In this document: positions 28,083 to 56,720 of the stretch, piece after piece
Numbering within the stretch: the stretch's first letter is position 1
Layout of the letters: the number at the start of each line of letters is the position of its first letter
Virus record (IMG/VR): IMGVR_UViG_3300020166_000010
Reading direction: 5' to 3' (one strand)
DNA: 64,000 bases
From: a virus
Program-made: the position numbers and the translations under genes
The notes under the pieces: generated by a model
Told to the model about the DNA's origin: nothing
Seen by the model: the letters and a program-made list of their open reading frames with translations, nothing else
Databases searched by the model: none

Positions 28083-29132
28083 TTAATTTGATAGTGGAGC
28101 CTTGATGCTCGGATGATATTTATAATCTTTAACTTCGTAATCAAATTCACCATCTAATATATTTATATTACTAAATTCTACTGTTGGTAAATCATAAATT
28201 TCTCGATCTAATTGTTCCATTGCTTGATCAATGTGGTTTGAATATAAATGAACATCACCTAAATTACCAATTAATTGATCTGGCACCATATTAACTTCTT
28301 CTGCGATTAAACAAAGTAGAGCAGCATAACTTGCAATATTAAATGGAAGACCTAAAAAAGTATCTACTGATCTTTGATTCCACATTAATGAGATCGATCT
28401 AGTTGGTATACCTTCATCATCCATAAAGTCTAATGTATTTATCATACCTAATCCATTGCCGTTATATGGTTTATCAGAATATAGGGACCATCTCTCATTA
28501 AAGGATAATTGTTTAGTATACATTTGAAATCCATAGTGGCATGGCGGGAGTGCCATCGTTGGTAAATCTCCAACGTTCCATGCTGAAACCATAAGTCTAC
28601 GAGAATCCGGATTTGTTTTTAGTTCTTCAATTAGATTTGCAATTTGGTCTTTAGTTCTCTCTACTATAATAGGATTACCACCATTCAATTTCTCAACATA
28701 ATATTCAGTCCAATCTCTCCACTGCTTCCCATATATAGGACCTAACTCACCCCACTTCTGAGCAAACTCATTATTGGTTTTGATTTTGTTGATAAATTCA
28801 TCTTGACTGGGTAAAGATGATTGAATGCCGGGCATTTGCGAAAATGTACTCTTAAATGCTTTATAAGCATCACCATTCCAAATGCTACAACCATTGTCAA
28901 CTAAATATTTAATGTTTGTATCTCCTTTAAGAAACCATTTCAATTCAGTCATCATTGTCTTAACTGCCATTCTCTTGGTAGTTAATAAAGGAAATCCATC
29001 CTTCATACTATGCCTGATCTGGCGACCAAAAACAGAATGAGTTCCTGTTCCAGTACGATCTGATTTTATTGTTGAGTTTTCTAATAGAGTTCCAAGCAGC
29101 GCTCGATATTGTTCTTCAATTCTATTTGGCAT
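28083..29132 (-). CDS. thyA: thymidylate synthase
   Basis: DRTGTGT, FPLLTTK, LGPIYGKQWR, MALPPCH, QRSVDTFLGLPFNIASY. Confidence 0.97.
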   Translation of the reverse strand: MPNRIEEQYRALLGTLLENSTIKSDRTGTGTHSVFGRQIRHSMKDGFPLLTTKRMAVKTMMTELKWFLKGDTNIKYLVDNGCSIWNGDAYKAFKSTFSQMPGIQSSLPSQDEFINKIKTNNEFAQKWGELGPIYGKQWRDWTEYYVEKLNGGNPIIVERTKDQIANLIEELKTNPDSRRLMVSAWNVGDLPTMALPPCHYGFQMYTKQLSFNERWSLYSDKPYNGNGLGMINTLDFMDDEGIPTRSISLMWNQRSVDTFLGLPFNIASYAALLCLIAEEVNMVPDQLIGNLGDVHLYSNHIDQAMEQLDREIYDLPTVEFSNINILDGEFDYEVKDYKYHPSIKAPLSN

Positions 29133-32672: not shown

Positions 32673-35600
32673 TTATCCACAATATAGATATCCATATACT
32701 CCTTCAGCCTTTCCTTCAGCATCAAATGCACAATCTTCCATACATTTACCTACTGTATATGATGTGATAGTTTGTCTTTCTTCATACTGTGGAGTTCCAT
32801 CTTCAAATCCAATTATTACCCATTCGGTTGGTTGTTTCATAACATATCCTGGCGTATCTGAAGAACATACTAAATCCCCTACAAGAACAAGTCCATTTTG
32901 ATCACATACTTTCATACCCGTTAATCTGCCTTCACGTGAATCTCCAATAGACGCTACTCTCCAAATAGTTTTAATATCCCTATCAGTTACTGGTATTTTA
33001 TTTCCTAGTGAATCTCTGTAGTGATGTGGTTTTTCTGAAGTATCTTTTCCGTTTGGTAAAAATTTATCTAATGGGCTATCCTTTATAGTAAAATCAAGAC
33101 CTTGCCATAATATACCTACGATAGCAGTATCTTGTGCTGACGATGCTTTAACTAATTCGTTGTTTTCATCTAACTTAACCAAATCTCCAACTTCTATTTG
33201 TGTATCATTTCTTTTAATATACGTATGGGATGCTGTGAAAGTTGGCGTAAATCCACTATCTTTGTCGCTAGGGGCTTCGCTAATAGTTGCACCGTTATCG
33301 TTGTCATATGTGACGTCATCATATCGCCCTGCATAACTCTCTGCTATAGTTCGAAAATCAGTTCTAAAATCATCAAATCTTTGATCTCCGAATTTTACTT
33401 CGGGTTTAAATCTAAGTTGTCTATATCCATTCTCGTCTAATATAGGGGCATCACTAGGATCTAACTCAAAATCAAATATAGTACTTGCAAGTCCACCTGC
33501 AATTGTTGCGCCTCCTTCAATGTCCATATCACCTCTAAACTTCGCGTTACCATCTGGATCTATATAGAAATTCTTAGCATTAATAGCACCAGCGTCTAGG
33601 TTAATACCCATACCTGCGAAAGAATACGTATCCCAAAGTGTTGAACTCGAAGTAACATCAGTTGCTGTCATTTCTTCTTCAGTTAATCCTGCACCTGTAC
33701 CTGATGCCAAAGACTGGGCAGAAACCGGCATTGCAAAATCGCCGCTCACTAATCTTCCTGTTGTTATCTTTCCACCGGATATTGTCGTTGTCGTTGTTAA
33801 GAATTGACTAACATCTGGTTCCGGACCTTGGAAACCTCTTGGTCCTGTAGGTCCAGTATCTCCTTGTAATGATTTAGCAAAAGTTTGTTCCTTTATAAAC
33901 GTAAAACTTTTACCATTAAGAAGAGTTCTTCCAGTAATGGTATATGTAATCTTAGCGGTATTATCAGTCATTTTACTATGATCTGTAAACAGTCTATCAC
34001 CGCCAAAATTAGCAGAACCTCCAACCGTGATTGAAGTTCCAACTGCAGTCACTTTATATTTTCCAACGCCAGTACCTACCCCATCAGATGTTAATTTGTT
34101 AAGACCCTCATACACGCTAACGCCTGTTCCTGACCCAAAATAATCTACAGTACCATCCGTTTGCGTTGGTAAGGTGTGAGCCTCGTTAGTAAGAATCACA
34201 GTCATACCATCAGCACCTGGAGTACCGGGTGCACCGTCAGCTCCTGCTTTAACTCCAGCAATCGTTATTTGGTCTCTTGCTAAAATAGCTGATGTTTTAC
34301 TGCCCTCTCTTATTTCTACCTCAATAGTTTCGGGCATATTGCTATAACTCGATTGAGGTGTATATGTATATGTTCGAGTTGTACTGTGTTGTACTGATAC
34401 GTCATTTTTATAGAAATTATAATACACCGTCCCAGTTGTGTTAAATGCAGTTGCTGCAATTTGTGTACTGGTTGGTAATGGAGTTGTTCCAGATGTATTA
34501 TATGCAAATACTTGACTCGGTGTTGCTAAAGAAACTGCTCTAGCGCTTACTCCAGCTGAACCAGTTGAACCTTGAGCACCTGGAAGGCCTACATCACCCT
34601 GTGCTCCTTTAGTTCCAGTAGTTCCCTGTGCTCCTTTAGTTCCAGTAGTTCCCTGTGATCCAGTTGGCCCTGCTGGCCCTGCCGGCCCTGCTGTAAAACT
34701 AACTTCCCCGTTAAATGCTACTTGACCGTTTTTTATTGAGAATGGAGTTAATAATGTACCATTTGCATCTTCACTATTTACTTTGAAACTATCTGCTTTA
34801 AATGCTATTGTACTACCAGTTTCATCTGCTCCTAATTTCATACCCGCAACGACTGGAACACCATTACTATCACTACTTACTTCTAATGTATATTGTGCGT
34901 TTACTTTACCAGTAAGAGCATTTATATCTGCTGATTGCTGGGTAGTTACTCCAGCGGTTTTATTATCTAACGCTGCTATTAAACTTGTTGTTGAGGTAAC
35001 AGTAGCTTGATTTGCAGTTGCAACTGCACTGTCTATTGTTGTTTTAAGGGCTGAATTTGTGCTTACACCGGTAATAGATCCATCTGTAGGATTTATTGTA
35101 TATTCTGCTTCTAGCGTATCTACTCTATTAACCGCAGCTGTGTTTAATGTTGTTAGTGCTGTTTCAACAGTATCTATAGCTGCATTGGTTGCAACAAGAT
35201 CGGTTGAGACGCTAGTTTCTATCGTATCTATTCTGCGTCCAAGTGCAGAGTCTGCATTAGCAAATGCCGTTTCAGCCGTACCTATAGCTGCATTAGTTGC
35301 AACAAGATCGGTTGAGACGCTAGTTTCTATCGAATCTATTCTGCTTCCAAGGGCAGCGTCTGCTGTCGCGATCGTTGTTTCAACCGTGCTAATATCGGCA
35401 TTGGTTGCAACGAGATTGGTTGAAACTCCTGCTTCTAAAGTATCTATTCTACCTGCAAGGGCGAGATCTGCTGTTGTTAGTGTTGTTTCAGCCGTACCTA
35501 TAGCTGCATTAGTTGCAACAAGATTGGTTGAAACACTAGTTTCTATCGTATCTATTCTACCTGCAAGGGCTAGGTCTGCTGTTGCGAATGCTATTTCAGC

Positions 35601-53696: not shown

Positions 53697-53792
53697 GTTT
53701 TTAATTATAGTTAAATATAACACTTTTTATTGAAACAAAAAAATCTAGGGCATTTATTTTCACAGAAAGTCCTATTTATAATGATTATAGAT
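53697..53792 (-). promoter_or_regulatory. early promoter cassette with palindrome 53774-53792
   Basis: ATTTATAATGATTATAGAT + CCCTAGATTTTTTT + GTGTTATATTTAACTATAAT. Confidence 0.8.
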
Positions 53793-53830
53793 AAGGGATC
53801 CAATTATATTAGAAGTTTATGATCTTAATT

Positions 53831-55824: not shown

Positions 55825-55882
55825 TATATAACTAAGTTTCCTTCTAAACAAAAAAAGACCTACAAGTTAATGTAAGTCTTTT
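55825..55882 (-). repeat. terminator + late-like promoter unit, copy 1
   Basis: AAAAGACTTACATTAACTTGTAGGTCTTTTTTT..AGAAGGAAACTTAGTTATATA; near-identical to 56289-56344. Confidence 0.85.
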
Positions 55883-56288: not shown

Positions 56289-56344
56289 ATATATCTAAGT
56301 TTCCTTCTAAATAAAAAAGACTTACAAATTAATGTAAGTCTTTT
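56289..56344 (-). repeat. terminator + late promoter unit, copy 2 (terminates tRNA array)
   Basis: AAAAGACTTACATTAATTTGTAAGTCTTTTTT..AGAAGGAAACTTAGATATATA. Confidence 0.85.
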
Positions 56345-56421: not shown

Positions 56422-56434
56422 ATTTTAATTGTTT

Positions 56435-56538
56435 GTAATCATAATTGGATTCGAACCAATTGCAGCTTTACAATAATGAGTCATCCTGAATGTTACTCAA
56501 CCTTTGTGAGGTGCTCCCAACCAATGGGCTTATGATTA
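56435..56538 (-). ncRNA. tRNA-like RNA with long arm replacing anticodon stem
   Basis: TAATCAT/ATGATTA acceptor, CCCA-TTGGT-TGGG D-like arm, ATTGG-TTCGAAT-CCAAT T arm. Confidence 0.7.
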
Positions 56539-56541
56539 TTT

Positions 56542-56617
56542 GGGTAGGATCAAAGGCCTTTTGCCTACCGCGACCTCGTCGTTGAACTTCCGAAAAAATC
56601 AGAGCGTACCGAGACTC
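56542..56617 (-). ncRNA. unclassified two-hairpin RNA
   Basis: TCTCG..TCTGA-T5-TCGGA..CGAGG and GGTAGG..CAAA..TTTG..CCTACC. Confidence 0.6.
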
Positions 56618-56628
56618 TTTTTAAAATA

Positions 56629-56720
56629 AGAGAGGCTTCGGGTCTTTCGGGGTTCCTGTCAATGTAATAAGCGAACCCTTGCTTTTGGTATTACAATAAT
56701 GACAGCTTCACTACCTCTCT
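56629..56720 (-). ncRNA. unclassified structured RNA with possible pseudoknot
   Basis: AGAGAGG/CCTCTCT, CTGTCA/TGACAG, TGTAATA/TATTACA; loop GGGTTC complementary to downstream GAACCC. Confidence 0.7.

Follow-up and report, generated by a model that had tools for sequence, protein, structure and literature searches.

The stretch of viral DNA analysed here (IMG/VR record IMGVR_UViG_3300020166_000010; 64,000 nt, hereafter the window) derives from a large, uncultured phage, in which PHROGs matches identified genes for a DNA ligase, methyltransferases and a Nol-like carbamoyltransferase. When a neighbouring gene was used as query, hundreds of aquatic relatives were retrieved from IMG/VR. The minus strand carries a tRNA operon, in which the genes are arranged in the order Ile, Gly, Thr, Gln, Leu, Ser and Asp, followed by a gap of 496 nt and then by Ala. 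All 10 tRNA genes near the 92-nt element described below lie on the minus strand, as does the element itself. Two nearly identical 12-bp terminator-like hairpins are located on the same strand; the one 3' of tRNA-Ala (56315-56344) closes the operon, and the other (55853-55882) follows the next gene downstream.

The 496-nt gap contains, from 5' to 3' on the minus strand, a 47-aa ORF, the 92-nt element (56629-56720), two hairpins and a tRNA-like element. The ORF (56870-56727, minus strand) encodes a basic product, is embedded in the tRNA operon and ends 6 nt upstream of the element. It is conserved at the loci L010 (3649-3792, with tRNA-Thr directly after it), L073, L077 and L082 (2414-2537), and at none of them is its homologue linked to a copy of the element. 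As this small ORF is unlinked elsewhere and no ORF of 20 aa or more was found inside the 92 nt, a coding reading of the element was rejected. The two G+C-rich hairpins (56542-56617, minus strand) between the element and the tRNA-like element, which the earlier note had also flagged, match no Rfam family. The tRNA-like element (56434-56540, minus strand) has a 7-bp acceptor-type helix and a perfect T arm (GGUUCGAAUCC); its D/anticodon region is irregular with a long insert, and it was called by neither ARAGORN nor the Rfam tRNA model. Its layout recalls that of T4 rnaC, the 3' part of which is tRNA-like. An unannotated tRNA-like element, with a 7-bp acceptor-type helix and the T arm GAGAG-UUCAAAU-CUCUC, was also observed at L010 (3508-3590, plus strand), between tRNA-Lys and the homologue of the 47-aa ORF.

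The 92-nt module extends from P1 to P1, and its RNA is numbered from nt 1 at window position 56720 on the minus strand. P1 is formed by an all-purine 5' strand (56714-56720, nt 1-7) and an all-pyrimidine 3' strand (56629-56635, nt 86-92), the latter followed by a U/A-rich linker. The junction strand J1/2 (56706-56713) contains the pentad AGUGA of the AG..A type, a candidate first T-loop as judged from pentad conservation. It leads into P2, the 5' strand of which (56700-56705, nt 16-21) pairs with 56656-56661 (nt 60-65), and P2 is followed by P3 (56689-56695, nt 26-32, with 56663-56669, nt 52-58). A short helix of 3-4 bp, P4 (56681-56684 with 56669-56672; nt 37/38-40 with 49-51/52), closes an apical loop of 8 nt (nt 41-48). 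Six nucleotides of this loop (56673-56678, nt 43-48) form a pseudoknot with a strand located directly 3' of P2 (56650-56655, nt 66-71). The remaining 3' junction strand (56636-56649, nt 72-85, 14 nt) consists of the pentad CGAAA, a (C/U)G..A sequence and candidate second T-loop, and then ACCC and GAAG. The order of the helices is thus P1, P2, P3, P4, PK, P4', P3', P2', PK', P1'. The helices P1, P2 and P3 of the earlier note are all present on the minus strand, as is the complementarity that it had pointed out between the loop GGGUUC and GAACCC of the 3' junction; P4 was not in that note.

Folding of the single sequence gave a minimum free energy of -22.2 kcal/mol with a z score of -1.63 on the minus strand, and 12 of 200 shuffled sequences folded as well; on the plus strand the z score was -2.04. 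The single-sequence fold is no better than chance, and thermodynamics alone is weak evidence. The reading as a chance hairpin, which this weak z score would invite, is nevertheless overruled by the covariation presented below. An RNA from the plus strand was rejected, because every member of the family lies on the strand of its tRNAs and none has a tRNA nearby on the opposite strand.

Relatives were sought by pattern scans and sequence searches. An exact-pattern scan of viral contigs retrieved a second copy at L082 (5377-5468), which differs from the window by one change only, from G-C to G-U in P4 (99% identity). This copy lies in a different flank, past a terminator and 5 nt ahead of tRNA-Glu. 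A recent lateral transfer is not needed to explain the 99% identity, as tRNA-Ala is 97% identical between the two. Three further pattern scans used, respectively, the loop with the 3' strand, the 5' strand with the foot of P2 and P3, and the 3' junction strand without any constraint on the pseudoknot positions. At least about 55 true distinct members came from the viral scans; the loci L081, L101 and L103-L105, together with many loci of the 3'-junction-strand scan, were chance matches in coding DNA. The window itself matches the DNA patterns by which its relatives were retrieved, a support that is independent of any covariance model. With the subclass covariance model R1, the window scored 90.6 bits, as it must by construction, being part of the seed.

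By BLAST and R1, the module was also found in cultured phages: Rhizobium phage RHEph12 and its relatives, Klebsiella phages VLCpiM5b/KP12, RaK2 and K64-1, Erwinia phages Hena1 and pEp_SNUABM_01, Pectobacterium phage PM2, Pseudomonas phage Milchi and Vibrio phage Va1. The copy of phage Hena1, a consensus member, lies at about 53721-53830 of MN732867. Among 185,579 prokaryote genomes (one per species), an exact pattern of the 19-nt core gave seven matches, of which six were in coding DNA and the only true one lay on a 12.6-kb, tRNA-rich contig of a Flavobacterium MAG. As judged from these searches, the family is in practice confined to phages. None of 80 relatives of the window phage, retrieved through the neighbouring gene, carries the module within about 6 kb, and we therefore consider its distribution patchy.

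The members differ in form. The window belongs to a subclass with an 8-nt loop closed by P4; in a second and larger subclass the loop measures 18 nt, and some members there have an extra hairpin. Circular permutations were found at L087, L106 and L084; their P1 carries a capping loop, and their open chain ends lie between P3 and P4. The form at L114 has no P1 at all, and in Vibrio phage Va1 a hairpin is inserted right after the second pentad. The window element matched nothing in Rfam 15 at either gathering or permissive thresholds (E up to 10), and ten other members matched nothing at E up to 5. The classes without a match include hammerhead, twister, twister-sister, pistol, hatchet, hairpin and HDV-like ribozymes, riboswitches, GOLLD and ROOL. 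GOLLD and ROOL resemble the module in being phage-borne, often tRNA-adjacent and elaborately folded; they are, however, 5-8 times larger and are represented in Rfam, where no match appeared even at permissive thresholds. Our literature searches found no paper describing such a family. Taken together, the comparisons indicate that the element is a member of an undescribed, widespread family of phage RNA modules that is absent from Rfam.

The fold was then evaluated on an alignment of 12 sequences of the window's subclass. The results showed that 94.4% of the cells were paired, as compared with 77.2 +/- 1.5% in shuffled alignments (none of 500 shuffles reached the observed value) and 41-56% when the partners were slid. 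Both sides change in 18 of the 25 pairs. In the subclass alignment, P1 covaries in 9 of 11 aligned pairs, and all four pairs of P4 change on both sides. The first two pairs of P2 are invariant (C-G and U-A) and its inner pairs covary, for example from CUG/CAG to CUC/GAG in the Klebsiella/Erwinia phage lineage. The sequences of P3 are unrelated and not alignable, and a helix forms at that place in 10 of the 12 members.

Covariation of GGGUUC with GAACCC in homologues had been proposed in the earlier note as a check on this pairing, and the outcome was positive: the pseudoknot helix is paired in all 12 subclass sequences, with two-sided changes at three of its six pairs. Among 37 unique members, 33 contain in their hairpin the exact complement of their own 3' hexamer, compared with 5 of 222 comparisons for the hexamers of other members. 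Seven different 3' hexamers occur across the family, i.e. six pairing variants beyond that of the window, including the double changes GGCAUU with AAUGCC and GGGAUA with UAUCCC. The note had also allowed a switch in which the loop would pair alternately with GAACCC and GACCC. When the first G of the loop is changed to A, GAACCC becomes GAACCU, while the ACCC of GACCC stays invariant. As GACCC does not follow the loop, the variants lend no support to a two-state switch. No partner covaries with the invariant ACCC, and variants with altered pseudoknot pairs do not support a C+.G-C triplex formed by it.

The family thus keeps the fold P1-P2-P3-P4, with its pseudoknot between loop and 3' strand, through compensatory changes. 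The unpaired parts are also conserved. About 22 junction nucleotides are nearly invariant across the family; in J1/2, six of the eight positions (nt 9-14) are invariant in the window's subclass, the 3' junction strand (nt 72-85) of the window equals the family consensus, and ACCC and GAAG in it are invariant in the family. In nearly all members, P1 has a 5' strand of about 90% purine and a 3' strand of pyrimidine, although its pairs covary. The compact fold suggested in the earlier note is borne out by this comparative evidence as a pseudoknotted RNA with a highly conserved core. That note could place the RNA in no known self-cleaving class, which agrees with our searches, and of the two findings that it had named as speaking against its reading, neither was obtained: Rfam 15 gave no match, and covariation was found.

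The genomic contexts were analysed for the 46 unique members that share the connectivity of the window. A tRNA gene on the same strand was found within 400 nt of 37 of them, and one on the opposite strand near none (0/46). Twenty members start between -1 and +10 nt (mostly -1 to +2) from the 3' end of the upstream tRNA, and downstream of 27 a tRNA begins no more than 20 nt away, mostly at 3-8 nt. The flanking tRNAs are of many kinds, and the place of the module in the arrays varies (head, middle or end). The module thus typically occupies a "tRNA slot" in phage tRNA arrays, and most tRNA spacers in the same arrays are only a few nucleotides long and contain no module. The window copy is atypical for the family: it is located 197 nt past tRNA-Asp and 207 nt ahead of tRNA-Ala, the 47-aa ORF and two other structured elements lie in between, and with its nearest tRNAs about 200 nt away rather than flush the ends of its RNA are not fixed by tRNAs.

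Three other contexts were found. In Klebsiella phage VLCpiM5b, the module makes up the 83 nt inserted into loop P6 of a group I intron (RF00028, 69.8 bits; L107 1059-1363, about 28514-28818 in ON602729), which splits the DNA polymerase gene, and P1 of the module is P6 of the intron. In the record of this phage the DNA polymerase is annotated as two CDS, and the intron between them is unannotated. Three phage genes for RNase P RNA-like RNAs (RF00373) also contain the module: L184 376-650 (plus strand), L096 12725-13004 (minus strand) and 33299-33562 (minus strand) on the contig of L102. Their scores of 54, 44.8 and 28.7 bits are all below the gathering score of 84. They keep CR-I, CR-IV, CR-V and P4, and their specificity domain is reduced to P7, P10 and the module, which sits on top of P10 at the specificity-domain site. 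The contigs of L184, L096 and L102 are 14-45 kb long with a CheckV completeness of 3-10%, which implies very large phages. Finally, the module occurs in plain intergenic DNA of complete phages of 31-68 kb with no tRNA near.

Within the 64-kb window, RF00028, RF00010 and RF00373 gave no match at E up to 1, and the window copy is free-standing. Its interpretation as part of a group I intron or an RNase P RNA was rejected, as no catalytic core surrounds it. No RNase P-like RNA was found in 43 module-bearing contigs (0/43) or in 5 complete genomes (0/5), nor is there one in the window; a split RNase P, made of the free module and a phage catalytic-domain RNA, was rejected on these grounds, and a two-piece phage RNase P is therefore not a general explanation. 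No protein family recurs among 78 flanking ORFs. Across all contexts the module lies on the transcribed strand. Since the same core is kept in any connectivity and in four host contexts with no constant neighbour, it is best described as an autonomous domain that functions through its own fold, and not as a cis-regulator of a particular gene.

The closest known counterparts are species 1 (rnaC, 139 nt) and species 2 (rnaD, 119 nt) of phage T4, which, like the module, are non-tRNA RNAs in tRNA slots. In T4, 1 nt separates tRNA-Arg from the start of rnaD, and 6 nt separate rnaD from rnaC, the same spacing as that of the module family in tRNA arrays, and the T4-like Pectobacterium phage PM2 carries the module at the head of its tRNA cluster. 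However, the family model gave no match on the rnaC/rnaD region of T4 (70908-71171) with filters off, nor on the whole T4 genome, and homology was rejected, since the model shows no relationship in sequence or structure. In addition, rnaC ends in a tRNA-like domain, whereas the module has none. To our knowledge, none of the small stable RNAs of phage tRNA operons, a group known since T4 species 1 and 2, has an assigned function.

We give about an even chance to the view that the 92 nt encode a small RNA domain which folds autonomously and exerts its effect through a bound partner, perhaps tRNA. The nucleases of tRNA processing would excise the module from the operon transcript in the manner of a tRNA, with RNase P cutting at the 5' end of the next tRNA and a 3' endonuclease at the previous one. 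Once released, the module may accumulate as a stable RNA of roughly 90-100 nt and would act by itself, without its neighbours as targets. The junction, rich in purines and held in place by the pseudoknot, could then serve as the docking surface for the partner. The distance of the window copy from its flanking tRNAs and the patchy distribution of the module speak against this view.

The leading candidate for this partner, put forward more tentatively, would be the tRNA elbow. In the double T-loop of RNase P, two T-loop motifs with the pentads AG..A and UG..A are combined (PMC3664808). The module has AG..A and (U/C)G..A pentads, which sit either side of its P2-P4 hairpin, i.e. they flank a hairpin in the same order as in RNase P (PMC3664808). 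In the first pentad, A1 is found in 39 of 45 members (87%), G2 in 41 (91%) and A5 in 44 (98%). The second pentad of the window, CGAAA, is shared by 50 of 51 members, most of which were retrieved by patterns that fix that strand; in the searches not fixing it, the 3' junction strand was the same in every member, with U for C in phages PM2 and Va1, where the pentads are UGAAA and UGAGA and G2 and A5 are kept. The junction layout is thus a candidate for that of the tRNA-elbow-docking double T-loop in the specificity domain of RNase P, where the pentads flank the hairpin P12 on top of P10/P11 and the interdigitated T-loops stack on the G19:C56 platform of the tRNA. The likeness extends to the genome, where the module is tRNA-associated and, in the three phage RNase P-like RNAs, stands at that very place.

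The module might accordingly be viewed, by analogy, as a free-standing miniature counterpart of the RNase P specificity domain, a double T-loop clamped by a pseudoknot and docking the tRNA elbow; we hold this to be possible but rather doubtful. On such a reading, the tRNA operons of phages would supply the module as a small RNA in its own right, and phages would now and then graft it onto a mini RNase P of their own or onto an intron. Against it stands the first position of the second pentad, which is C in nearly all members and not the canonical U. The module also has a pseudoknot between loop and junction, which canonical RNase P lacks, and it is mostly free-standing, in phages without an RNase P-like RNA. 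The family model gave no significant match on three canonical bacterial RNase P RNAs, with sub-threshold scores of 7.7-8.9 bits inside two of the three genes, and homology to canonical S-domains was rejected by this result. The intron and the small-phage contexts, moreover, have no obvious need of a tRNA reader.

Several properties of the module are typical of small ribozymes, namely its size, the pseudoknot, the nearly invariant junction nucleotides, the natural permutations and the lack of an expression platform. It could accordingly be a self-cleaving ribozyme of a new class that trims the tRNA operon transcript, in the way of HDV-like theta ribozymes at the 3' ends of phage tRNAs, or processes an adjacent mRNA, which we consider unlikely. 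Its position also resembles that of theta ribozymes, of which 77% of the tRNA-associated copies lie within +/-1 nt of the tRNA (Kienbeck et al. 2024, PMC10879173). Like the 20 members mentioned above, theta ribozymes directly adjoin the 3' ends of phage tRNAs; the two kinds of RNA also share a small size, a pseudoknotted fold and an abundance in uncultured Caudoviricetes. Its presence within the loop of another ribozyme may be compared with twin-ribozyme introns. The topology is different, however. In the module a pseudoknot between the hairpin loop and the 3' strand is enclosed by P1, whereas theta ribozymes fold as a nested double pseudoknot whose 5' end is taken by P1; in the HDV-like fold the 5'-terminal strand of P1 pairs internally and P2 closes the 3' end, so that the order of helices differs. 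Unlike theta ribozymes, the module has a tRNA closely after it, occurs in permuted forms and has no match to an HDV family in Rfam, nor did any Rfam ribozyme family match it even at E up to 5-10. The permuted copies of the L084 type, in which P1 is capped, also abut the 3' end of a tRNA; what links the module to tRNAs can therefore not be cleavage at the P1 foot, and the filling of a slot fits better. Cleavage within the body of an RNase P-like RNA would also be odd.

It is similarly unlikely that the module is a cis element of untranslated transcripts, such as a spacer or insulator for tRNA folding, a block to nucleases, or a signal for antitermination or termination. Its constant co-orientation with its neighbours in tRNA arrays, the intron, RNase P-like RNA and intergenic leaders would suit such a role, and P1, which is A-rich on its 5' and U-rich on its 3' side and followed by a run of U in many members, recalls the foot of a terminator. 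Yet efficient termination is excluded by the tRNAs that follow after 3-8 nt, and a spacer or nuclease block does not need some 22 invariant unpaired nucleotides kept from Rhizobium to Flavobacterium phages. The variable place of the module in the arrays, and the many spacers of a few nucleotides that do without it, also argue against this role.

A selfish or hitch-hiking cassette, spread by recombination or homing endonucleases and surviving where it is harmless without benefit to the phage, is an improbable explanation. It would account for the patchy distribution, with the module in none of the 80 relatives, for the recurrence of one module both in phages that are unrelated and in insert-tolerant loops of an intron and an RNase P-like RNA, and for the nearly identical copies of the window and L082 in rearranged flanks. 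Genes for HNH homing endonucleases were found at four loci without tRNAs, 17-30 nt from the module at L086 (1939-2394), L162 (7944-8444) and L217 (1635-2042) and about 400 nt from it at L087 (4150-4719). However, HNH ORFs make up only 4 of the 78 flanking ORFs; they are not generally associated with the module, and an enrichment is unproven. The module has neither terminal duplications nor an associated transposase, and purifying selection suffices for the 99% identity, given that of tRNA-Ala. The compensatory changes in four helices and the pseudoknot, together with the invariant unpaired strands, show that selection acts on an RNA and not on a DNA site. Still less probable is a small-molecule aptamer made in bulk, either as a sponge for a host signal or as a sensor gating the formation of P1, for which the P1-closed, pseudoknot-clamped junction has the usual layout, the identity of P1 with intron P6 in the Klebsiella phage would allow ligand-dependent folding to gate splicing, and context-independence would fit a trans-acting sponge, but against which stand the lack of a recurring gene or expression platform downstream, of any similar riboswitch family in Rfam and of a candidate ligand.

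Returning to the autonomous, partner-binding RNA domain, its family is far more widespread than T4 species 1 and 2: it is present in T4-like, rV5-like, jumbo and small phages, with hosts ranging from Rhizobium to Klebsiella to marine Flavobacteria. Rfam and the phage annotation pipelines leave such stretches of 90-130 nt blank. With a fold established by covariation and at least seven cultured phage-host systems, the question of its function is directly testable. Its presence as a graft in a group I intron, and at the position where phage RNase P-like RNAs read their substrate, marks it as a modular domain that passes from one RNA to another, a rare property. Docking to the tRNA elbow is a concrete, falsifiable idea; if it were true, the module would be a fourth and mobile class of tRNA-elbow readers, after the ribosomal L1 stalk, RNase P and the T-box, and would give phages a means to hold, chaperone, shield or sequester tRNAs during infection.
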